Assembly (NCBI GenBank): GCA_963827235.1
Contig: CAWHAE010000009.1
Location: 320,001 to 384,000, forward strand
Reading direction: 5' to 3'
DNA from: an uncultured bacterium
GTDB lineage: Bacteria; Chloroflexota; UBA5177; JANWHV01
DNA length: 64,000 bases
A program made the translations under genes and the position numbers. Under the pieces are notes generated by a model. The model saw only the letters and a program-made list of their open reading frames with translations, made no database searches and was not told the origin of the DNA. Below are positions 6,325 to 22,327 of this stretch, piece after piece (within the stretch, counting starts at the first letter, position 1; each line of letters opens with the position of its first letter).

Positions 6325-7155
6325 GTGCTGACGCCCCTCCCGAACCTACCGGTTACGTTGCGCGCCAGGATGAAGCAATCTTCTGCGCACCACCTCGTCA
6401 TCGTCGGCGATAGCCTCGGCGCCGGGCACGGCGACCCTGTGCAAGGCCTTGAGCTGGTGGGCTGGGCGGATCGTCTCGCCGTCGCACTGCAGGCGCGTAC
6501 GCCTCCTCTGCGCGTCTGCAATCTCGCCAGAATCGGCCGTACCACGGAGGAGATTGCGCGCGAACAATGCGCCCAGGTGCCTCGGCTGCGGCCGGCGGTT
6601 ATCGTGGTGTGCGCTGGGGGTAACGATATGTTGCAGCGCCGTTGGCAGCCGCGGGTGTTTCGCCAGGTCTACATGGCGCTCCTCCAGCGGCTGATGGCCT
6701 CGGGCGCACGTGTCATTACCACCACCTGGCACGATGTGCCGCGGGTGGTCCCGATGCAACCGGCCTTGGCACGCCACTTCTCAGAACGGCTCGCGGCGGG
6801 CAGTGGCGTGGTACGCGGTATCAGCCGAGAGCTGGGCATGCCCTGCATCGACTTCTGGTACCGGCCGGCACTGCTCGACGCCGGATGCTATAGCCGAGAT
6901 CGCCTGCATCCCAATGCACTGGGGTACCTTCGCCTCGCGGGAGCCATCGCAGCTGCATTGTCGCCGTTCGCCGGGCTGCGTATTCCGCAAGGGGCGCTCT
7001 ATACGCGTCGCGAACGGTGCCAACCTGGTGTCCTGGGCGCGTGGCGGCCTCACAGCGGGTCGCTCGAGTCTCATCTTGGCCGGCCGCTCTCGATGGATGC
7101 GGCCTCCGGTTCATCGGCCGGGATCTCGATCGGGTCGACGGCGTCTTGGCCGTAG
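6325..7155 (+). CDS. SGNH/GDSL hydrolase family protein
   Basis: VGDSL, GWAD, NLARIG, GGND, DRLHPN; GTG 6325 follows GGAGG. Confidence 0.85.
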   Translation: MLTPLPNLPVTLRARMKQSSAHHLVIVGDSLGAGHGDPVQGLELVGWADRLAVALQARTPPLRVCNLARIGRTTEEIAREQCAQVPRLRPAVIVVCAGGNDMLQRRWQPRVFRQVYMALLQRLMASGARVITTTWHDVPRVVPMQPALARHFSERLAAGSGVVRGISRELGMPCIDFWYRPALLDAGCYSRDRLHPNALGYLRLAGAIAAALSPFAGLRIPQGALYTRRERCQPGVLGAWRPHSGSLESHLGRPLSMDAASGSSAGISIGSTASWP

Positions 7156-9985: not shown

Positions 9986-11532
9986 TCACAGTGCGCCGGC
10001 CTCATCCATGGTCATGGCACGCCCATCCGCCCACGCTGCCTCGAACGCCACGGGGCCCAACGCCGCGCGGAGCGCCGTGACGGCGGTTTCAATGCGGGGG
10101 CGTTCGTTCGGCGGCAGACGGAGTCCGATGATCTCTCGACCGGCCTCGTGCAGGGCCGCTTCCTCGGCCAGCAGGAGGTAGTAGTGCGCGTGCGCGCGTT
10201 GCGCGGCAGCCAGAGCACCGCCGCTATCGAGCCGTTCAAGCCCGAGCTCGCGAATTGTCTCCAGCATGCCGATACGCGTCTCGCCATCGGCCAACTCGGT
10301 GCGCTACACCAGGCTCTTCTCCACCAGGGAGTGGAGTCCCGCCAGCACATCGCCGGTGTGGGCGTCCGTTGCCCTGACCAGCGCGGCGACCGCTTCCGGC
10401 GCGCAGCCGCTGCTGAATACGCTCAGGAGCTGGAAGAGCGTCTGCTCGCCTGGATCGAGTAGCTCGTAGCTCCAGGCGATCGTGGCGCGCATTGTCTGCT
10501 GGCGTGCAGGAAGGTCGCGCGCCCCCGATCAGTACGTCGAGCCGTCGCTCCAGCCGCGCCAGCAGCGCGTGGGGCGAGTACAGGCGGACCTGGGCAGCAG
10601 CCAGCTCCAGGGCCAGCGGCAGTCCTTCCAGACGCGAGCAAACCGCGGCCACCGTGGCGGCGTTGGCCGGAGTGATTGCGAAGTCCGGGTGGTGCGCGCT
10701 CCGCGAAGAGGGCTAGCGAAGGATAGCGCGCAAGGACGTCGAGCGGCGGCAGGTGCTGCAGGTCGGGCAGCGGCAGCGGGGCACCGGAACCTCGCGTTCC
10801 CCGCGCAGACGCAGAGCGGCACTGCTCGTGACCAGCACGTGCAGACCGGTACAGACTTCGAGCAAGCGTGCCAGCTCGGGGCCGGCAGGCAGCAGGTGCT
10901 CAAAGTTGTCCAGCACCAACAGGAGCTGCTTGGCGCGCAGCTGGCACGCCAGCTCCTCGACCACGGGGCCATTGCTTTCCACGCGCAAGCCTACACTCTG
11001 CGCCAGCACGGCCGGCAGCAACGCTGGGTCCTGCAGGCCCGCCAGGGGGACAAACACCACGCCGCCGGCGTAGGCCCGGGCAAGTCCCGCTGCGGCGGCC
11101 AGCGCCAGCCGTGTCTTGCCCACTCCGCCAGGGCCCGTCAGCGTGATCAGCCGAGCTCTCGACGGCCCAGCCGGCTCCAGGAGCAGGAGGTCGGTCAGGC
11201 CCTGAAGCTCCGTCTCGCGACCGAGCAGCGGGGTCAACGGCATCGGCAAGGTATCGCGAGGGCCGTCATGCGTGCCGGAACGCGCCGGTCCCGCGCCACG
11301 CCGCTGGCACTCGGCCACGAACGCGATCTGCTGCTGTCCGGACAGGCCCAGGGCGGCAGCCAGCCGCAGGGCACTCTCACGTTGCGGTGAGCGATTGATG
11401 CCGCGTTCCAGATCGCTGATACCGCGTACGCTGAGTCCGGCCCGTTCCGCCAGCGCTTCCTGAGACACACCGGCCTCCAGGCGGTACCGGTCGCAGCACG
11501 TCGCCGAACGATCCGTGCGCTGTGCCGGTCAT
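9986..11532 (-). pseudogene. Disrupted XRE-HTH + NB-ARC/AAA ATPase + TPR regulator
   Basis: SFGDVLR/RYRLEAGVSQEALAERAGLS, Walker A GPGGVGKTRLA, LLVLDNFEHL, LEGLPLALELAAA, IAWSYELL, LVEKSLV, MLETIRE are spread over several frames; most of the TPR region is missing. Confidence 0.85.
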
Positions 11533-11967: not shown

Positions 11968-12600
11968 CTAGAGTTGCCTGTCATCTCCGGCCATGCCTGC
12001 ACGGTCGTCGCGGCGCCGGTGCCGGAGTCGCTCGACAGCCATTGCCGTCACGATAATACCGAGGAGGATCCAGAAAGCCGCGCGCATGGCCAGCAGCAGG
12101 ACCTGGCTGGCCAGGCGCGGCAGGTTCGTCCAGAACAGCGCGCTAGCCGAGACGATGTGCAGCTGCGCGCTGTCGAAGGTGAGCCACTGCCGGCGAGCCG
12201 GGTAATAGTACTCGACGGTGACCTTGTGCCACCCCAGCTGCTTGAAGCGGTGCGTCACCGCATACCCCTTGGCGACGGCGCCATCGTCGAACACCCAGCG
12301 GAACGGCGTCCGCAGCATCTCGGCCGAGAGCGAGCTCCCTACCTTCGCCACATCCTCGCTCAGGTGCAGGCTGTCGCCCGGTGCTGCCGCCGGCAGCGTG
12401 AACGGCGCCCAGTGAGCAGCATCCACCTGAGAAGGCGTGCCCTCGGTGAGGCTGGCCGTGGTGCCGTTCATCGCGATGGAGGCAATGCCATTCAGGCTGC
12501 AGGCCCGGGCAGTTGCCGCCTGCCCTGCCACCGCCGCGAACGTGAGCAGCACGCACGCCAGCACCCGGCCGGGCGAGAGGCGAGCGACGTGAGCAGTCAT
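11968..12600 (-). CDS. Secreted PKD-like protein with N-terminal Cys and C-terminal membrane anchor (paralogue 1)
   Basis: Signal ending ARA-C, FRWVFDDG..HRFKQLG PKD motif, C-terminal hydrophobic helix plus basic tail; GGAG RBS. Confidence 0.8.
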   Translation of the reverse strand: MTAHVARLSPGRVLACVLLTFAAVAGQAATARACSLNGIASIAMNGTTASLTEGTPSQVDAAHWAPFTLPAAAPGDSLHLSEDVAKVGSSLSAEMLRTPFRWVFDDGAVAKGYAVTHRFKQLGWHKVTVEYYYPARRQWLTFDSAQLHIVSASALFWTNLPRLASQVLLLAMRAAFWILLGIIVTAMAVERLRHRRRDDRAGMAGDDRQL

Positions 12601-12640: not shown

Positions 12641-13132
12641 TCAGGGATGCGTGGCGTGCGGGGCGGGTGCTATGGTGATCGTCACCTGGTCGAAGGCGAT
12701 CCACTGCTTCGTCGGCGGCCAGTACGCCTCGACCACGATGCGCCGGCGGCCCGTGCGGGCATAGGCGTGCTTCACGGTCCAGCCTGTCGCGGTGCTGCCG
12801 TCGCCGAACTCCCACCGCCACGGCCGCTGCATCGCGGCCGGGACGAGTGACTTTACCACCTCGTTCCGAATCTCGGTGAATACGATCGCGCGCTCGGCGC
12901 CGTAGCCGTTTGGTAGCGAGAACGGCGCATACGTCAGGAGCTGCGCCGACGTCGTGGGCGGATCGGTCGTCAGCTGATCGAGGCGGCCGTCGGCGGTCAG
13001 CGAGGGCACGTTGTCCAGCGAGCAGGCGCCGGCGCGGCCAACGGAGAGCAGCGATCCTATGGCCAGGACGGCCGCGATGACAGCCGTAGAGATGAGCGTG
13101 TGTCGCCGGGTGCCGGCTCCCAGGTTCTTCAC
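12641..13132 (-). CDS. Secreted PKD-like protein with N-terminal Cys (paralogue 2)
   Basis: Signal ending AGA-C, WRWEFGDG..HAYARTG; GTG start just after the stop of the SCO fusion. Confidence 0.8.
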   Translation of the reverse strand: MKNLGAGTRRHTLISTAVIAAVLAIGSLLSVGRAGACSLDNVPSLTADGRLDQLTTDPPTTSAQLLTYAPFSLPNGYGAERAIVFTEIRNEVVKSLVPAAMQRPWRWEFGDGSTATGWTVKHAYARTGRRRIVVEAYWPPTKQWIAFDQVTITIAPAPHATHP

Positions 13133-13136
13133 CTGC

Positions 13137-14279
13137 TCATGCCTCGAGCAGCGCCCGGATGGTGGTGACGACACGCGACGGCAAGAACGGCACGTCATAA
13201 TAGGCGCGCAGCCGGCCTGCCGGGTCGATCAGGAACAGTCCGGCCTGGTGCACGATCGCGGTCGTCGGCTTGAAAATGGGCGGAGGCGCTTCCACGTCGA
13301 CCCCATAGGCGCTCCATATGCGAGACAGCACGGGTCGCGGGGCGGTCAGGTAGTGCCAGTCGCCGCCCGGCCAGCCTGCATCCCGCGCGAATTGCGCCGT
13401 CGCGCCGGGGCTATCCAGCTCAGGCTCCACGCTGACCGCTACGATGCTCAGCCTGGACGCATCCTTGCCCAGGTCGTTCCGCACCAGGGTGAGGGCCTTG
13501 CCCACCAGCGGGCATTGCTCCTTGCACAGTGCACTGATGAACGTCAGCGCCACCACCCTGCCGCGCAGTTGCTCGGGCGTGATCAGCGTGCCGTGCTGAT
13601 CGCGCAGGGCAAAGGGGTGGGCTACCGCGGCGGGCCGATACACCGCGTCGGCGGCGATGGCCGGCGCACCTCGCTGTGCCGGCTGGTCGGCGACCAGCGA
13701 CGGCTGGAGGAGCGTGGTGCAGCTCGGGCACTGAATGGCTCCGATCTGCGCCATGCCGTCGCGCACGGTGCCGGCGTCCAGCGGCCCGACCCACTCCGCC
13801 TGCAGACGTCCTGCCTCGTTGATGAAGAAGCTGGTAGGCCGCGCGCCTACGTCATAGGACCACGCCACGCTCTGTCGCGCATCCACGCCGACGGCATAGG
13901 GGATATGGGCCGCGCGGACGAATGCGCGAGCGGACGCGACTGTGTCGCCGCCGGTGGCCACGCCGACCACGCGGATACCCTCCGCCTGGTAGGCGTGCAC
14001 CGCCTGGCGCAACACGGGCAGCTCGTCGAGACAGTCCGCACACTGCGTGTTGAAGAAGTTCAACAGCACGGGATGACCGCGGAATGCGCGCAGCGAGACG
14101 CCGGCACCCGCACCGGAGGCCTGGGGGAGTGTGAAATCGGGCGCCGGCGGGACCAACGCGGCCGGTGCCTGGTGGGCCGCGAACGCCACCACGCCCCCAA
14201 GTGAGGCCACACAGACGACCATCACCGCCGCGAAAACGCGAAGGCGCGTCCCGCGCAAGCGTCGTAGCCAACCAATCAT
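13137..14279 (-). CDS. Membrane-anchored TlpA/redoxin + SCO1/SenC fusion protein
   Basis: APDFTL..VLLNFFNTQCADC (thioredoxin CxxC), linker CPSC, FALRDQHG..CKEQCP..IVHQAGLFLIDPAG (SCO CxxxC + His). Confidence 0.88.
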   Translation of the reverse strand: MIGWLRRLRGTRLRVFAAVMVVCVASLGGVVAFAAHQAPAALVPPAPDFTLPQASGAGAGVSLRAFRGHPVLLNFFNTQCADCLDELPVLRQAVHAYQAEGIRVVGVATGGDTVASARAFVRAAHIPYAVGVDARQSVAWSYDVGARPTSFFINEAGRLQAEWVGPLDAGTVRDGMAQIGAIQCPSCTTLLQPSLVADQPAQRGAPAIAADAVYRPAAVAHPFALRDQHGTLITPEQLRGRVVALTFISALCKEQCPLVGKALTLVRNDLGKDASRLSIVAVSVEPELDSPGATAQFARDAGWPGGDWHYLTAPRPVLSRIWSAYGVDVEAPPPIFKPTTAIVHQAGLFLIDPAGRLRAYYDVPFLPSRVVTTIRALLEA

Positions 14280-14442: not shown

Positions 14443-14925
14443 ATGGGTATGGGTGTGCGCGAGAGGAGAGAAGCGTTGGCACGGTCTGCGTGGCAACCGG
14501 CTGCAGTGATTGGTTGTGTGGCAGTGCTGCTGATCGCGTCGGGACTGCGCTCCGTGGCCGCCTGCGACATCGACGGCCTGCCGTCATTGACGGTCGATCA
14601 CACCCTCGTCCTCGTGAACAGCGAGCAGCCGACCAGCCCGGCCACACTCAAAGTCTGGGCGCCGTTCGTCCCGCCCTTCAGCCTGATCGCAACGCGCACC
14701 TATACGTTCGCCGAGATCCGCCAGCGAATTCCCCTGACGCCTGAGGCCTTCGAGAATTCCTGGCGCTGGGCGTTCGGCGACGGGACGCCGCCGGCACGCG
14801 GGGACAGCGTGCGGCACGTCTATCGGCGGCCCGGCGTGTACAGGGTCACCGTCGCTGCCTACTTCCCCTCCCACAAGATCTGGTACACGTTCGACGCTCT
14901 CCAGGTGCGCGTGACGGTGGGCTGA
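14443..14925 (+). CDS. Secreted PKD-like protein with N-terminal Cys (paralogue 3)
   Basis: Signal ending VAA-C, WRWAFGDG..HVYRRPGVYRVTV; start could be 14449. Confidence 0.8.
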   Translation: MGMGVRERREALARSAWQPAAVIGCVAVLLIASGLRSVAACDIDGLPSLTVDHTLVLVNSEQPTSPATLKVWAPFVPPFSLIATRTYTFAEIRQRIPLTPEAFENSWRWAFGDGTPPARGDSVRHVYRRPGVYRVTVAAYFPSHKIWYTFDALQVRVTVG

Positions 14926-15046: not shown

Positions 15047-18000
15047 TCAGGGATTGTCGACGGCCGCTTCGTTCGAGCCCACGGGCGATGGCACTACGGC
15101 CACCACGCGATTGTCTGCCGTGCGGATGATCGTCACGGCGTTGCCGCCGATGCTGGCCACGTAGACGTACTTGCCGTCCGCCGTCACGTCGGGCCCGTGC
15201 GGCTGTGCCGCCACCGGGATCGTGGCGATCACCTTGCGCCGCGCGGCGTCGATCGCGCTCATCTCGTTGCCGAGCTGGTCGGCCACATACACCGTGCGCC
15301 CATCCGGCGCGGCCACCAGCAGCGCCGGTCCCTTGCCTACCGGAATGGTCGCCACCACGCGCAGGGTGCGCTCGTCGATCACCGACACATTGCCGGCAGT
15401 CTGGTTGGCCACCCAGACTTCGTGACGAGGCCCATCCACGGCCACGCCGTAGGCGCCCGGCGCGGTGATCACGGTGCGCCCCGGCCTGAGCGTGGTGGTG
15501 TCGACGGTGTAGACCCAGGCACCGCCGGCGCAGGCCACATACAGGGTCTTGCCATCCTCCGCGATGTCGATGCCGTGCGGCTCGAAACACGTGCCGTCGG
15601 GGAACTCGATCTGCCGGCTCGTGCCGGTCCTCAGATCGAGCACGGAGAGATCGTTGGAGCGGAAGTTGGTGACGAAAGCGCGCCGGCGATCGGGCGTGAA
15701 CACCACGTGGGCCGGCCCAAGTCCCACGGCAAAGGTGCGCACTACCCGCATGCCGCGCAGATCGATCTGCGTCACCGTGCCGGGATCGGCGCCGAAGTTG
15801 GTGACGAAGGCATACGGTGTGCCGTCGAGCACGTCCACGCCGTGCGCTTGCGCGCCCGTGTGCAGGATGGACCCGCCCAGCTTGCGGACGCCGTTGGAGC
15901 CCATCTCCGTCACCAGCACCGTGTAGGGCAGAGCGCGGGCAACAGCCAGGTTATAGGCCTGGCTCAGATTCGCCGAGCGCGCCGGCAGGCCGGCGGGGTT
16001 CGTGCCGGTTTGCGCTGTGAGCAGGTGCATGGGCCCGCTCAGCGGCACATAGTAGGTGAACTGGCGCAACGTGACCCAGGCACCACTCCGCTGCGCCTGA
16101 ATGGTCAGCCCCCAGCGGCCGTTCATCGGCGCGAACGCGTCGCGCACCACCCAGCGACCGCCGCCGAGCGCCGTGGCCGGATAGGTGAGGACGCCCATGT
16201 CCATATCCAGCGACTGCGAAAGCATTCGCACCGCCGAGGCCTGCCCGATGCCGCCTAGCGTGAAGGTGTTGGGCGCGCTGATCAGCCCGGGCGTGGCGAC
16301 AATGCTCACGGCAGCCGAACCGGACTGGTCGAGAAAGGAGGCGCCTGGTCCGGCGATGAACGTGAACGGAAGATCTCGGTACTCGCCGGGATCGTCGCGC
16401 GTACGCACCATCACGTCGGCGCGCCACTGCCCGGCCTGGACGAGGTCGCCGGTCCCGTTGTAGCCGCCGGCAGCCGGCGTGGTCTCCACGAAGGTGTAGC
16501 CCAGTGATGATTGGCCCGGCACGCTCAATCGGATGCGCACCTGGCCGTCGGTCACCTTCCGGCCGCGCTCGGCCACGAGCACGCGAAACGTCGTGCTGCC
16601 TAGGGCCGGCGGCCTGATCGTCAGCGTCGCCTGCAACACGCCCGCTGTAGCACTGCCCGTGATCGCGCCCGGCACCGGTACCGAGGGCGTGGCCGGAGCC
16701 ACGGGCGTGCCGGTCGTCGAGACCACGCTGCTGAACACCGCGGCCGCCGGGGCCGTCTGCCCCATCAGTGCCACGCACAACAGGATGAGGGCGCCGAGCG
16801 CCGGCTCGATGCGCAGGCGCAGGGCAAGCGATGCATACCCGCGTTCGGCCGCCGGTGAGTCGGCCGGCAACCCGCGCAGTCGGGGACGGGTGACAAACAC
16901 GTGGGAAGCGCTCAGCAGCACGATCACACCGATCAGTGCCAGCTTGACCAGCAGAAACCGGCCGTACAGAGTACCGGCGAGTTGATCGAAGCTACCAAGG
17001 TGCACCTGGGCGTTGAACATGCCGGTCACGGCAGCCGCGGCCACCGCGATGTACGCGGCAGGCGAGAAACGGTCCAGCAGGTGCAGGAAGGCTCGCCGGA
17101 GAGCAGACCCGGCCCGGTCGCCGGCCGCCAATGCGTGGAGCGCCGGCAGCAGGGCCAGGGCGATCGCCGCCATGCCGCCGACCCAGACGGCCATGGCGAT
17201 CAGGTGCAGCCAGTCAAGCAGCACGGAAGTGGCCACCATTTGCTGCACCGATGCGGCGTGCCCGGAGAAGGCCAGAGCCAGCAAGTAGGCCAAGCCCAGC
17301 GCGGCGGCGGTCCAGCCGGCCAGGACGCTTGGCTCACCGGCCGCCGCTCTGCCGGGCACCTGACCGCTCGCCGATCCGCGACGCGCGCCCACGACCTCAG
17401 CACGCAGATAGCGGCTCATGCCGGTGACCAGGCGTGATGCCCGGCCGGCCGGGGCGCCGCTGAGAACCAAGAGCGTCACGAAGGCCAGCAGCATGCGTGC
17501 CAGCCAGTAGGTGCCATAGCGCGCGCTCAGGATGGCGTCCAGCGTGTTCGCCGACACCATGCCGCTCCAGCCGCCGGCGCCGTAGGCCTGCGTCTCCAGC
17601 TCCAGCAGCGACGTCACCAGCGCAGCCAGCAGGCCCAGGCGCGCCGTCAGTACACAGCGACGCCCGGCAGCCCTGCAGAGCGAGGCCACCGCGCCTTGAC
17701 GCGTCGCCCGTGTCGACGGGAACAGCACCAGGATCTGCAGTGCCAGGGCCCCGGTCCAGAGCGCCGACGCCGCCAGCACCAGCCAGTGCGCCAGAGCCGC
17801 GGCCACCGCCGGGCCGTCGAGCGTAGGGTTTTGGGGCGCGGCGATGGCGCCCGAGGCGGCGCTCGGCGCCACGGCGCCGCTGCCGCCGGCAGTGAAGGTG
17901 TAGAAGCCGTGCAGCACGTGGCCGTCCAGCGCCGAGTCGCTGGTCCAGTAGACCGAGTAAACCCCATCGGGGAGCGCTGCCAGCCTCACATCTAGCTGTT

Positions 18001-18265
18001 CGCCGTTCGCCGGATCCACGTGGCCGGTATCGCCGTTGACCTGCCGGCCCTGAGCGTCGCGGATCACGATGCGGGAGAGTGCGGAGTTGAGGGCCTCGTC
18101 GAACCAGAAGCGATAGGTGGCGGCCTTCACCAGGACACGGCTGTCGGGCGCCAGCTCGGCGCGCACAAGGTGAGCGTGCGCTGCCGCCTGTCCGGGCAGC
18201 GCGAACAGCGCGAACAGCGCGAGCGCCAGTGCGCACGCACCGAGTAGCAGGCGGCGGACGGACAT
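15047..18265 (-). CDS. CopC-CopD-2x YtkA/FixH-like-YVTN beta-propeller fusion protein
   Basis: Signal + HAHLV..DGHVLHG (CopC); HWL, SGHA, DWLHL, KLAL helices (CopD); two beta-sandwiches, the second with MDMG; about seven YVTN-type blades. Confidence 0.88.
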   Translation of the reverse strand: MSVRRLLLGACALALALFALFALPGQAAAHAHLVRAELAPDSRVLVKAATYRFWFDEALNSALSRIVIRDAQGRQVNGDTGHVDPANGEQLDVRLAALPDGVYSVYWTSDSALDGHVLHGFYTFTAGGSGAVAPSAASGAIAAPQNPTLDGPAVAAALAHWLVLAASALWTGALALQILVLFPSTRATRQGAVASLCRAAGRRCVLTARLGLLAALVTSLLELETQAYGAGGWSGMVSANTLDAILSARYGTYWLARMLLAFVTLLVLSGAPAGRASRLVTGMSRYLRAEVVGARRGSASGQVPGRAAAGEPSVLAGWTAAALGLAYLLALAFSGHAASVQQMVATSVLLDWLHLIAMAVWVGGMAAIALALLPALHALAAGDRAGSALRRAFLHLLDRFSPAAYIAVAAAAVTGMFNAQVHLGSFDQLAGTLYGRFLLVKLALIGVIVLLSASHVFVTRPRLRGLPADSPAAERGYASLALRLRIEPALGALILLCVALMGQTAPAAAVFSSVVSTTGTPVAPATPSVPVPGAITGSATAGVLQATLTIRPPALGSTTFRVLVAERGRKVTDGQVRIRLSVPGQSSLGYTFVETTPAAGGYNGTGDLVQAGQWRADVMVRTRDDPGEYRDLPFTFIAGPGASFLDQSGSAAVSIVATPGLISAPNTFTLGGIGQASAVRMLSQSLDMDMGVLTYPATALGGGRWVVRDAFAPMNGRWGLTIQAQRSGAWVTLRQFTYYVPLSGPMHLLTAQTGTNPAGLPARSANLSQAYNLAVARALPYTVLVTEMGSNGVRKLGGSILHTGAQAHGVDVLDGTPYAFVTNFGADPGTVTQIDLRGMRVVRTFAVGLGPAHVVFTPDRRRAFVTNFRSNDLSVLDLRTGTSRQIEFPDGTCFEPHGIDIAEDGKTLYVACAGGAWVYTVDTTTLRPGRTVITAPGAYGVAVDGPRHEVWVANQTAGNVSVIDERTLRVVATIPVGKGPALLVAAPDGRTVYVADQLGNEMSAIDAARRKVIATIPVAAQPHGPDVTADGKYVYVASIGGNAVTIIRTADNRVVAVVPSPVGSNEAAVDNP

Positions 18266-18356
18266 ACTAACGCTCCCTTCGCGCAAGAGGCGCTCGGTTT
18301 CCATGGAAACGCGCCACCAGGAGCGCGTCCTCCTGGTGGCGGCTCCGGACGCTCGA

Positions 18357-18743
18357 TCAGACGACTGAGAAAGTGAACCACCCCCCGGCGTGGTGACCGT
18401 CGTTGGCCGAGATGGTGTACCAGATCAAGGCATACGTGCCCTTGGCCAGCTTGGGCACGGTCATGGTCATCTCCATCGCGTTGGAGAAGGAGACCTGGCT
18501 ATCTCCGTTATCGTCCTGACCATGATCGCCGGTGGTCTCGAAGATGCCCATAAAGCTCCCCTTCGGAGCGACTCCCTCGGCGAAGAAGCAGCTGACTGTC
18601 TTGGGCATGGCCTTGAGCTTGGCGCCGGGCGCAATGCTGCACTTCTGCAGGCTGGCGTGAGCCAGAGCCACACGCGGCGCCAGGGCGCTCATGCCCAGGA
18701 CCAGGGAGGCCGCGGCCAGCCAGCGGGTCAAATGGATACGCAT
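18357..18743 (-). CDS. copC: Copper-binding protein CopC
   Basis: Signal ending ALA-H (His1), GTYALIWYTISANDGHHAGG; AGGAG RBS. Confidence 0.85.
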   Translation of the reverse strand: MRIHLTRWLAAASLVLGMSALAPRVALAHASLQKCSIAPGAKLKAMPKTVSCFFAEGVAPKGSFMGIFETTGDHGQDDNGDSQVSFSNAMEMTMTVPKLAKGTYALIWYTISANDGHHAGGWFTFSVV

Positions 18744-18840
18744 GGACGTTTCTCCTGATTTCTGTTCTCGTTCGGCATAGGTTTGTCGCGAGCGTGCAAC
18801 GCGGCCGTTAGTGGTTCGTCAACTATGAATGCTCGCATTC

Positions 18841-18890
18841 CCCGCGACCGCAGTCGCCCAACTGCTGCCATGCGCCCGCGCTCGCAGGCC
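18841..18890 (+). repeat. Dispersed double-hairpin intergenic repeat, copy A
   Basis: cccGCGACcgcaGTCGCccaactgctgccaTGCGcccgcgctCGCAgg; similar to copies at 28897, 29004, 35899, 39660. Confidence 0.7.
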
Positions 18891-19072
18891 GCGCCTCTAC
18901 GGCAATGATTGGTTGTTGACAGACCACTGGTGCGTGGCATCGTGGCGGGATTTGTGATAGCCAAAGACCGTGCTCCACGCGGGGCAGTCGCGGGCGAGCC
19001 ATGTTCCGGCCTTCCCGCTTGCCTGAACCGTGCTGGCTTATACGCCGCCTCGCTCGTGCGGCGCGGCGACGG

Positions 19073-19840
19073 TCAGATCGGTGGCGGGCGCGAAAGCACT
19101 CCCGGGCCGCCCAAGAGGCCGCTCGGGGCGAGGGGCGGCGCCGGCGGGAAGGCCTGGCCCAGCGGTATCTGCAGCGCCTGGCTGAGCAGCCGGCGCAACG
19201 CGGTGATCGCCGCCTGAAGAGTCTCGAAGCGGCGCTCCAACCGCCAGACCAGCGCCGCGAGTAGCAACGCGACCGCCAGGTGCACGGGCAGCAGCGGAAC
19301 GGCGCTCTGCACCGCCATGGCCATGACTACTCCATGCATGTGTGTGGAGACGGTCATGGGCATCGACTGCTCAGCCAGTGCGTACAGGCCGGCCTGGACG
19401 CCGAGCAGCGGCAGCAAGAGCGCCAGCAGCCTGCCTGGATGGAGCGGCGCTCGTGCCGCCGGCGGCCGAGCCGCGACATGCAGGCACCGTGCCGTCTGCG
19501 TGAGGCGGTGCCGCTGGCCCGCGAGCCTCTGCAGCTCGCGAAACAGCGCCAGCAGCGTCAGCAGGGCGGCGGCGATCACTACCAGGAGCCCGCCTCGAAC
19601 CGGACAATGCGCCAGCATGAAGGCGACCGAGGCGGGTCGACCGTTCACACCGTCCAGGCCCAGATGGTATTCGACGACGTGGACGAGCGCTGCACCGACG
19701 CTGGCCAGCAGCAGCAGCGCGCCGGCAGAGAGGACCGGTCCGGCAGGTCCGCTCCCGGCGCGGACCCGCGGCAACGGCAGCCACGCAGCCGGTACGGCTC
19801 GCAGAGCTGACGGTGGCGGTGCGGCACGAGACCAGTACAT
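19073..19840 (-). CDS. Hypothetical ~4-TM His/Met-rich membrane protein with C-terminal RPPP motif (candidate arrest-peptide regulator)
   Basis: Four hydrophobic segments, HVVEYH, AHC, MPMTVSTHMHGVVMAM, ends GVLSRPPPI*; CATACT lies 6 nt before ATG 19840. Confidence 0.75.
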   Translation of the reverse strand: MYWSRAAPPPSALRAVPAAWLPLPRVRAGSGPAGPVLSAGALLLLASVGAALVHVVEYHLGLDGVNGRPASVAFMLAHCPVRGGLLVVIAAALLTLLALFRELQRLAGQRHRLTQTARCLHVAARPPAARAPLHPGRLLALLLPLLGVQAGLYALAEQSMPMTVSTHMHGVVMAMAVQSAVPLLPVHLAVALLLAALVWRLERRFETLQAAITALRRLLSQALQIPLGQAFPPAPPLAPSGLLGGPGVLSRPPPI

Positions 19841-19910
19841 ACTCACAGTATGCTCGCTCGTCCACTATGGACACGGGTGCGCCGCAAGCAGCAGCCAGCG
19901 CCGTCCCGCG

Positions 19911-21541: not shown

Positions 21542-21835
21542 GTTGCGCGGCGGCCCGGCGCGTGCGACGCTGAGAGCCCGCCAAGAGCACGGTCCTATAT
21601 CCAATTGTCTGGAGCAGGAGCGGCTTCCTGCGTACCACGTCGGCCCTCGGACGGTTCGTGTCCGCCGCGCCGAAACCTTGCTGGGCTCCCTTGGCCGCCA
21701 GCCAACAGACCACTGCGTCACGATATCCACGTGCGTCCCACTCGCACGAGCGGCAGGCAAAGTGGCAAGATGAGAGTGTATTCTTAAGTTCAATTGCACG
21801 CGACAGGGGAAGCCGCGGTATCACGGTGGGATGCG

Positions 21836-22327
21836 ATGGCAGAAGACAAAGGCACGGCGTCGATTCAGCCGGGAGGAGCGTACGCAGCGCCGGAGTCCAT
21901 GCTCTCCGCCGTCTCCTTCCTGCGCGACCACGGCTTGCGCGTCACCCCGCAGCGACTGCTGCTGGTGGAAGTCGTGCGCGGTCTGTCCGGCCACTTCACC
22001 GCCGACCAGGTCTACAACAGGGTGCGCGCCGCCTACCCGGGCGTGAGCAAGGTGAGCGTCTACAGAGGCCTCGACACCCTGCGCGAGCAGGGCCTGGTCA
22101 CCTGCACCGAGCTCGGCCAACCGTCTGCCGAGTACGAGTGGAGCGGCGCATCCCGGCACCACCACCTCGTCTGTACCCACTGCGGCTACCAGCAGAACGT
22201 GCCCGATGGCGCCATGGACATGCTGCGGCAGCGCCTGGCCTCCGACTACGGCTTCCAGGCCACCATCGACCACATCGCGATCTGGGGCGTCTGCGAAGCG
22301 TGCCACCAGGCACAGCACAAAGAGTGA
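21836..22327 (+). CDS. Fur-family transcriptional regulator (Fur/Zur/PerR)
   Basis: LRVTPQR, HFTADQVY, SVYRGLDTL, HHHLVCTHCG, GVCEAC. Confidence 0.92.
   Translation: MAEDKGTASIQPGGAYAAPESMLSAVSFLRDHGLRVTPQRLLLVEVVRGLSGHFTADQVYNRVRAAYPGVSKVSVYRGLDTLREQGLVTCTELGQPSAEYEWSGASRHHHLVCTHCGYQQNVPDGAMDMLRQRLASDYGFQATIDHIAIWGVCEACHQAQHKE

Follow-up and report, generated by a model that had tools for sequence, protein, structure and literature searches.

What does a gene for a membrane protein that ends in Arg-Pro-Pro-Pro (RPPP) do immediately upstream of a set of copper genes? Such a gene lies ahead of copC in the window, a 64,000-nucleotide stretch of bacterial DNA, and a preliminary description of the sequence had suggested that its product arrests its own ribosome in response to copper. 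The computational analysis reported here finds that the protein belongs to a real, conserved, and unnamed family that bears the marks of a copper-linked arrest leader. Judging from sequence, the gene probably acts as a ribosome-arrest leader that responds to copper and controls a copper-import operon.

Protein Architecture and Predicted Membrane Topology

Translation of positions 19073–19840 of the minus strand gives a 255-residue protein (P0001) that terminates in SRPPPI-stop. The GC3 of the gene, 0.81, is similar to that of neighbouring genes (0.84–0.86). The motifs listed in the preliminary description are all found in the translation: HVVEYH (residues 54–59), AHC (77–79), PVHL (185–188), and a 16-residue loop, MPMTVSTHMHGVVMAM (160–175), with five Met and two His; CxxC is absent, as had been stated. 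Hydropathy agrees with the claim of about four transmembrane helices in that it reveals four hydrophobic stretches, the third of them weaker (peak 1.6 vs. 2.0–2.3 for the others).

Relatives were collected by a word search, which returned 14 proteins, and by a profile search of 1.84 billion representatives, which returned 78 matches; the resulting family set holds 91 proteins including the query. The 65 whole-looking members were aligned, the omitted 26 being fragments, the chance match P0082, and P0038. Mean identity among the aligned members is 33%, and 37 of them are left at a 50% identity cut. Conserved polar residues of the main clade (60 members) are His54, His59, Cys79-Pro80, Gln149, Met162/166/168/173/175, Glu202-Arg204 and, partly, His187. 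The features of the gene, with main-clade counts, are as follows.

19073..19840, minus strand: putative leader gene, 255 aa, four predicted membrane helices, unnamed family (translation, hydropathy, alignment, model)
19664..19732, minus strand: helix 1, outer end H54-x-x-E-Y-H59 (His54 57/57, His59 59/59; model helix 34–60)
19541..19612, minus strand: A-H-C79-P80, then helix 2 (Cys79 55/59, Pro80 59/60, His78 37/59)
19373..19429, minus strand: helix 3 with conserved Gln149 (Gln 54/60; hydropathy, model)
19316..19363, minus strand: Met-rich outer loop, family pattern P-M-x3-M-x-M-x-G-x2-M-x-M, modelled as a beta-hairpin (alignment, model)
19244..19300, minus strand: helix 4 with His187 (His 34/60, Gln 13; model helix 183–228)
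19091..19243, minus strand: linker of fixed length and low conservation, with E202, R204, G245, and an aromatic residue or Leu at 249 kept (alignment)
19079..19090, minus strand: RPPP (R251–P254), putative ribosome arrest motif, one codon ahead of Ile and stop (alignment)

Of the Met and His residues proposed as ligands, conservation singles out the Met loop, which is a conserved Met motif (Met162 in 58 of 60 main-clade members; Met166, Met168, Met173, and Met175 in 55, 54, 52, and 54 of 59), and His54 and His59, but not the two loop histidines: at position 167 His is not among the three commonest residues of the main clade, and His169 occurs in 27 of 59 members. Position 166, Met in 55 of these 59, is Thr in the window's protein. 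Likewise, the lack of CxxC is correct, but the single conserved Cys79 means that the protein is not Cys-free.

An AlphaFold2 model of good confidence (pLDDT 86, pTM 0.77) folds the Met loop into a two-strand hairpin (strands 163–168 and 171–176) and shows a single continuous helix at 183–228. The strand register suggests a common face for the Met residues of the hairpin. In the family alignment, the inner segments carry on average 3.4, 8.2, and 6.7 Lys/Arg vs. 1.7 and 0.8 in the outer loops. By this distribution and the model, loops 1 and 3 would be outside, and the N-terminus, the tail, and the intervening loop 2 would be inside. The conserved His54, His59, Cys79, and Met-lined hairpin would then lie on the outer face.

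Conservation of the RPPP Tail

The preliminary description had left the conservation of RPPP to be checked in homologues and would have been refuted by a lack of it. This refuting result did not arise: R251–P254 turned out to be the sole invariant columns in the 65 aligned members. Among all 91 proteins, taken without selection for whole length, 76 reach the site and 75 of these have RPPP; the lone exception, P0038, reads RPRR and may be frameshifted, and the other 15 comprise 14 classed as too short and one without a match. RPPP occurs nowhere in the 15,372 upstream residues of the 65 members, and R[AG]PP (RAPP or RGPP) is found nowhere in these members. As the original search profile contained RPPP, the hits were rescored with a tail-less profile built from 14 close sequences. 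Sixty-eight of 76 hits still pass, namely 54 with RPPP, 12 whose sequence or match breaks off ahead of the site, one chance hit, and the RPRR protein P0038; hence, the main clade was not selected by RPPP itself.

RPPP always follows the last membrane helix at a distance of 44–51 residues; this distance, counted from R204 to R251, has a standard deviation of 1.5, and the cytoplasmic loop between helices ranges from 24 to 51 residues with a standard deviation of 4.8. Mean identity is 0.23 in residues 205–244 vs. 0.64 in residues 245–254. The residues that follow RPPP differ in kind and number (1–8 of them in 57 of 65 members), which is what a motif acting on the ribosome should show. CxxC appears in one of the 65 members, and the only conserved Cys lies 172 residues ahead of R251. 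The combination of a fixed tether, an invariant Arg, and free residues after the motif is more in keeping with an arrest peptide than with a structural motif.

Five proteins (P0076, P0081, P0086, P0090, and P0091) make up a distant subgroup that keeps RPPP and its spacing together with the helix-1 His, Gln149, His187, and the pattern G-x3-[WL]-x-RPPP. The Met hairpin, His59, and Cys79 are absent from it, and H-x-Y and QENxE motifs stand in place of the Met hairpin and the Cys. Four of the five fail the tail-less profile, and a subgroup profile matches the close set with an E-value of 1e-13, the tail being included. This subgroup may sense another ligand or signal.

Neither Pfam nor NCBIfam, which were also searched with family members, has a significant match for the query. 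In the ESM Atlas, three unnamed clusters (Vulcanimicrobiota, Actinomycetota) score 0.94, and the nearest named cluster is DUF6412 with 0.76; without the tail the scores drop to 0.85–0.86, so much of this likeness resides in the tail. The best hits of a PDB sequence search (E 0.098) and of Foldseek (E 0.49) are not significant, and the best hit of a VIA fold search (Z 6.4, rmsd 7.0, 153 aligned residues) is at a level common for helical bundles. These searches likewise bring out no significant profile or clear fold match to known copper transporters or chaperones (CopD, PCuAC, YcnI, and the like). The absence of a fold or family match does not show that the fold is new. A comparison of P0001 with the plasmid set gave no match.

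Copper Genes Downstream

The identification of the next gene as copC (PF04234) is upheld: it lies on the same strand, 329 nt after the stop codon of the putative leader gene. The copper genes of the window are as follows.

18357..18743, minus strand: copC with signal peptide, mature N-terminal His, and DGH motif (PF04234, E 7.6e-13)
15047..18304, minus strand: CopC-CopD-YtkA fusion (YcnJ architecture) with a C-terminal YncE-like beta-propeller, likely a copper importer (profile search)
13137..14279, minus strand: TlpA-like/SCO1-SenC fusion, copper loading of oxidases (profile search)

The YtkA domain is below the cut-off in the window's fusion and above it in four other loci. YcnJ of B. subtilis, which has the CopC-CopD-YtkA architecture, is an importer that supports growth under copper starvation (PMC13344008). 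The TlpA/SCO fusion directly follows the copC-copD fusion in locus L072; in the window, an opposite-strand gene intervenes.

A scan of 185,579 species genomes for the Met-hairpin pattern gave 75 matches, of which five are family members by HMM and 70 are not. Since this pattern requires the Met hairpin, it fits 41 of the 65 aligned members, and the distant subgroup is invisible to the scan. The five genome members are 33–42% identical to P0001. Genomic context thus covers six loci, the window and the five genome loci. The identity of the downstream genes, a further check that the preliminary description had proposed, is the same throughout: copC and then a copC-copD fusion follow in all five genome loci, and YtkA is present in the four whose fusion is whole. 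With the window included, copC stands behind the putative leader gene in six of six loci, 57–329 nt away. Three of the five genome loci are labelled Chloroflexota and two, L010 and L070, proteobacterium; one close relative protein is assigned to Chloroflexota by its source. The L010/L070 locus matches the Chloroflexota-labelled ones, which could reflect loose labels or movement of the locus.

Several other traits of these loci deserve a record. The extra C-terminal YncE-like beta-propeller on the importer is seen in the window (15047–18304), L015 (1810–4962), and L072 (1109–4261) and is absent in L010 and L070. In all six CopC proteins (window 18357–18743 and the five loci), DGH is retained and a Cys stands six positions behind the mature N-terminal His, and a second Cys follows about 18 residues further on in four of six loci. 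Small exported PKD-domain proteins sit beside the copper genes in the window (11968–12600 and 12641–13198, minus strand; 14443–14925, plus strand), and a fourth is found in L015 (4883–5578, minus strand). They start with A-C-[SD]-[LI]-[DN] after the signal peptide and are possibly an unnamed copper- or thiol-linked family.

As to conventional regulators, CsoR and CopY models have no match among 51 further ORFs of the window (from a list of 84; E 1e-8). An HTH_3 regulator with an ATPase-like region (10236–11468, minus strand) appears split over several frames, which suggests frameshifts or a pseudogene. A Fur-family gene lies 2 kb from the putative leader gene in the window (21794–22327, plus strand). 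In L010, a Fur-family gene (6470–7042, minus strand), probably zur, ends 11 nt before the putative leader gene and faces znuA. No Fur-family gene adjoins in L070, and L010 is the only locus where one does. Fur/Zur control was rejected, such a gene adjoining in a single locus and facing znuA there.

Probable Transcript Start and Intergenic Leader

Two further features belong to the transcript.

19847..19852, minus strand: putative -10 box CATACT, 6 nt before ATG 19840, leaderless-type start (YAnACT comparison)
18744..19072, minus strand: 329-nt intergenic leader (Rfam, folding vs. shuffles, promoter and terminator scans)

A YAnACT box (TATACT, CATACT, or TAGACT) is placed 6–8 nt before the in-frame ATG in five of six loci and further upstream in the sixth. 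The background for this placement is 5 of 1566 ATGs in the window, for a pattern that was defined after the sites had been seen. The start at 19840 is thereby supported, and the gene probably heads its transcript. The -10 box and start codon of the window form a 6-3-6 palindrome, CATACT-GTG-AGTATG (19838–19852), which is absent in the other five loci and is probably due to chance.

Neither the lengths (57–329 nt) nor the sequences of the intergenic regions are conserved across the loci. In the window, Rfam gives a chance match only (E 0.76), located inside the putative leader ORF, and the intergenic leader folds no better than shuffles (z −0.55); as no conserved block is shared by the three long leaders either, a riboswitch or structured RNA was rejected. 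A sigma-70 and terminator scan detects no promoter or intrinsic terminator in the window's leader; the same scan also missed the gene's own -10 box and is therefore weak. YAnACT boxes within the leader number none in the window and one in L072, and TAnnnT boxes occur within the leaders of L015 and L072, where internal promoters are possible. A weak shared TGACGA...ACT stretch is present in the two longest leaders, at 18795–18830 of the window and about 80 nt before copC in L072, at the same distance from copC; the L072 copy holds the CATACT box, a possible internal promoter.

The P-site of a ribosome stalled at RPPP would be 69–341 nt from the copC start across the six loci. The calculated opening of the copC ribosome-binding site (RBS) is unchanged by the stalled footprint (within 0.02) in four of six loci, the window among them; it rises from 0.30 to 0.40 in L010 and falls from 0.46 to 0.34 in L022. 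A stall-coupled hairpin over the copC RBS is not supported, given that the footprint fails to open the RBS in five of six loci. The 3′ end of the putative leader gene is C-rich in all six loci, as at the Rho site of CruR, mostly because of the proline codons. A synonymous-codon test for a Rho site gives pooled p-values of 0.067 for C-G and 0.036 for G loss, is significant alone only in L072, and yields p 0.85 in the window; the Rho-site signal is therefore weak. We presume that these bacteria possess Rho.

Proposed Mechanism and Alternative Explanations

It appears quite likely from these features that the gene is an arrest leader of the copper genes that follow it, and, if so, copper is very likely its signal. 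The gene would be transcribed first, from a leaderless start. Its four helices would insert during translation with both ends inside, and His54, His59, Cys79, His187, and the Met hairpin would face outward. Translation would then pause on a short tether to the membrane, R-P-P lying in the peptidyl centre and Pro occupying the A site, by analogy with the RAPP peptides. At low copper the pause would persist and the mRNA behind it would be protected, probably from Rho, so that copC and the YcnJ-type importer are made. Copper on the outer sites would tighten the bundle, pull the chain, or let EF-P rescue the ribosome, whereupon translation would end and transcription would stop in the leader. The low-copper-on and copper-release steps are borrowed from CruR and from the importer-type cargo, and it is this cargo and the long leaders that favour the CruR polarity. 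For this direction, with a stall at low copper keeping the importer on, and for the Rho detail, the chances are roughly even.

Helix insertion exerts a pull at roughly 30–40 residues. About 54 residues separate the end of the last helix from the P-site proline, which is more than this range allows; bundle packing, metal binding, or another later step would therefore be a better fit than insertion force. The core itself calls for caution. Partial arrest is retained when the core of ApdP or ApdA is mutated to RPPP, with mutant vs. wild-type units of 2.4 vs. 1.9 (B. subtilis) and 491 vs. 152 (E. coli), and 12.9 vs. 3.0 for ApdA (PMC12992588). By analogy with these mutants, RPPP should be a weaker staller than RAPP or RGPP, with Pro at x only partly permissive. 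RPPP is absent from the table of the 50 most avoided tetrapeptides in the same article, in which RSPP and RDPP are listed (PMC12992588). Most such motifs in ordinary proteins are described as not stalling. A stall at RPPP would therefore have to depend on its surroundings, in which G245 and the aromatic residue or Leu at 249 are candidates.

The copper genes might also be switched in the opposite sense, with an EF-P-rescued pause at PPP being prolonged by copper, the copC RBS opening, and the genes turning on, as in CutF, which stalls at a C-terminal PPP on extracellular copper binding (bioRxiv 10.1101/2025.02.05.636593). RPPP does contain a PPP run, the predicted ligands face outward, and the footprint raises RBS opening in L010. 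However, the opening is unaltered in four loci, including the window, and lower in L022, the P-site would lie 69–341 nt from the copC start, copper induction makes less sense for importer-type cargo, and the invariant Arg argues for an RxPP mechanism; we consider this polarity rather improbable. About equally improbable is a stable copper-binding membrane protein (a collector, chaperone, or importer subunit) encoded first in the operon, in which RPPP would serve for docking or cause a harmless pause during folding. Its attraction lies in the length of 255 residues with a confident fold, in a larger number of conserved ligands than a single sensor site needs, and in the Met hairpin, which we take to resemble Cu(I)-collecting surfaces. 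The well-folded model, set against the poorly structured CruR, indeed suits a lasting protein equally well and is a counter-point to the arrest leader. Yet no ligand column is as invariant as RPPP, the five distant members retain RPPP and its spacing without the Met hairpin, His59, and Cys79, and a cytoplasmic docking motif would need no fixed distance from the membrane. A stable-protein role does not exclude that of an arrest leader.

Less likely still is an arrest leader that senses not copper but membrane insertion or secretion capacity (a force of the MifM/ApdA kind), another metal, or redox state. All proteins encoded downstream are exported or reside in the membrane, the known RAPP peptides are force sensors (PMC12992588), and a zur-like gene with znuA adjoins the putative leader gene in L010. 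These points are countered by the conserved His, Cys, and Met residues of the outer face, by the copper genes downstream in six of six loci, by the lack of sec or yidC among the annotated downstream neighbours, and by the position of the Fur-family genes, none adjoining in L070 and the window's lying 2 kb off.

For the copper-responsive arrest leader, the model further permits the tentative and rather doubtful idea of a folded four-helix copper receptor that acts while tethered to the ribosome: Cu(I) at the Met hairpin and the His/His/Cys site would move helix 183–228, which in the model reaches from the outer face to the mouth of the tunnel, and so set the lifetime of the RPPP stall. If true, a polytopic protein would be signalling across the membrane in a ligand-gated manner while still nascent. 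The putative sensor of this family is rigid and well modelled, its candidate ligands are clear, and its tether can be measured, which should make the force model testable residue by residue.

Comparison with Known Arrest Peptides

By analogy, the putative leader most likely works like CruR of Bordetella pertussis, with which it shares the place as first gene of a copper operon, an RxPP just before the stop codon, a conserved spacing, and a long intergenic region. In CruR, the CXXC-RAPP spacing is conserved, and copC occurs among the genes behind CruR homologues (PMC9426467). Unlike CruR, the protein has four helices rather than one export signal, appears folded, carries its ligands on the outer face, has CxxC in one of 65 members, and does not match DUF2946. 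Membership in DUF2946 was rejected: the profile matches neither P0001 (at E 0.1) nor any of the 65 members (at E 0.01), and the CxxC (or CxxxC) about 45 residues before the arrest motif is absent. With the DUF2946-like CutF of Rhodobacter capsulatus, the putative leader would share the sensing of copper beyond the membrane by a nascent chain that ends in a PPP run. CutF relies on Cys ligands, carries a signal peptide, has the RBS of the next gene covered by a stem-loop, and induces a detoxifying oxidase (bioRxiv 10.1101/2025.02.05.636593); a stall-dependent RBS stem-loop was not found in five of the six loci described here.

The R-x-P-P core is common to ApdA, ApdP, ApcA, and SecM (RAPP/RAPG/RAGP). 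In RAPP-type structures, contacts to the ribosome or the A-site Pro are made by the side chain of the Arg and, at the second residue, by the backbone only (PMC10951233). The family has a RAPP-like C-terminal R-x-P-P with a permitted x and four helices at a fixed distance upstream, and its core is not the canonical RAPP or RGPP. ApdA, ApdP, ApcA, and SecM differ in that they precede sec or yidC genes, sense translocation force, and do not have Pro at the second position in the wild type.

The closest precedent is SLIV_18480 of Streptomyces lividans, for which Fujiwara et al. 2025 (PMC12992588) showed arrest and predicted a copper site of three His and one Met, sensing itself being only predicted. 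A four-helix His/Met arrest peptide upstream of a metal gene had thus already been published, and the claim of the preliminary description that the protein represents a different class is not supported. The source table of that article lists 133 RAPP uORFs before "copper resistance protein CopC" and many membrane RAPP proteins of about 200 residues before copC and ycnI; how metal releases or prolongs the RxPP stall is stated there to be open, and, according to its review file, the authors' reporters failed to detect downstream expression for the four-helix class (PMC12992588). Four predicted helices, His/Met ligands without CxxC, a C-terminal RxPP, and a metal gene downstream are common to both types. 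The family differs from the SLIV_18480 type in having RPPP in all aligned members and never RAPP or RGPP, so a RAPP/RGPP screen would miss it, and in its Met beta-hairpin, H-x4-H and C-P motifs, and long Arg-rich inner loop. The Gln of the Gln-x3-His of helix 3 in the SLIV_18480 type lines up with Gln149, but Tyr, Phe, or Leu occupies the His position.

Three of 10 fetched plasmid copC loci had a membrane R[AG]PP uORF upstream. A comparison set of 10 actinobacterial-type sequences was compiled from four plasmid loci and six of 15 homologues, SLIV_18480 not being among them. Against this shallow set, profile-profile comparison gives no significant match (E 0.14; 0.064 local and 0.054 global), and the core score of 15.9 is exceeded by two of 40 column shuffles. 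A forced global profile alignment pairs His54/His28, Gln149/Gln73, His187/His127, Glu202/Glu142, and RPPP/RGPP, and the His-to-Glu (15) and Glu-to-Arg (49) spacings are identical in the putative leader and in the comparison sequence P0093. From sequence comparison, remote kinship with the four-helix R[AG]PP uORFs is plausible.

A search of the openly accessible literature found no paper on an RPPP or Met-hairpin leader before copC. As far as the literature searched goes, the RPPP core, the Met-hairpin sensor, and the family appear to be new, while the concept of a copper-responsive arrest leader is already published and is left unchanged by the family. Compared with the systems reviewed above, these proteins suggest RPPP as a natural arrest core, here in apparent Chloroflexota; searches for such leaders would then extend beyond RAPP and RGPP.
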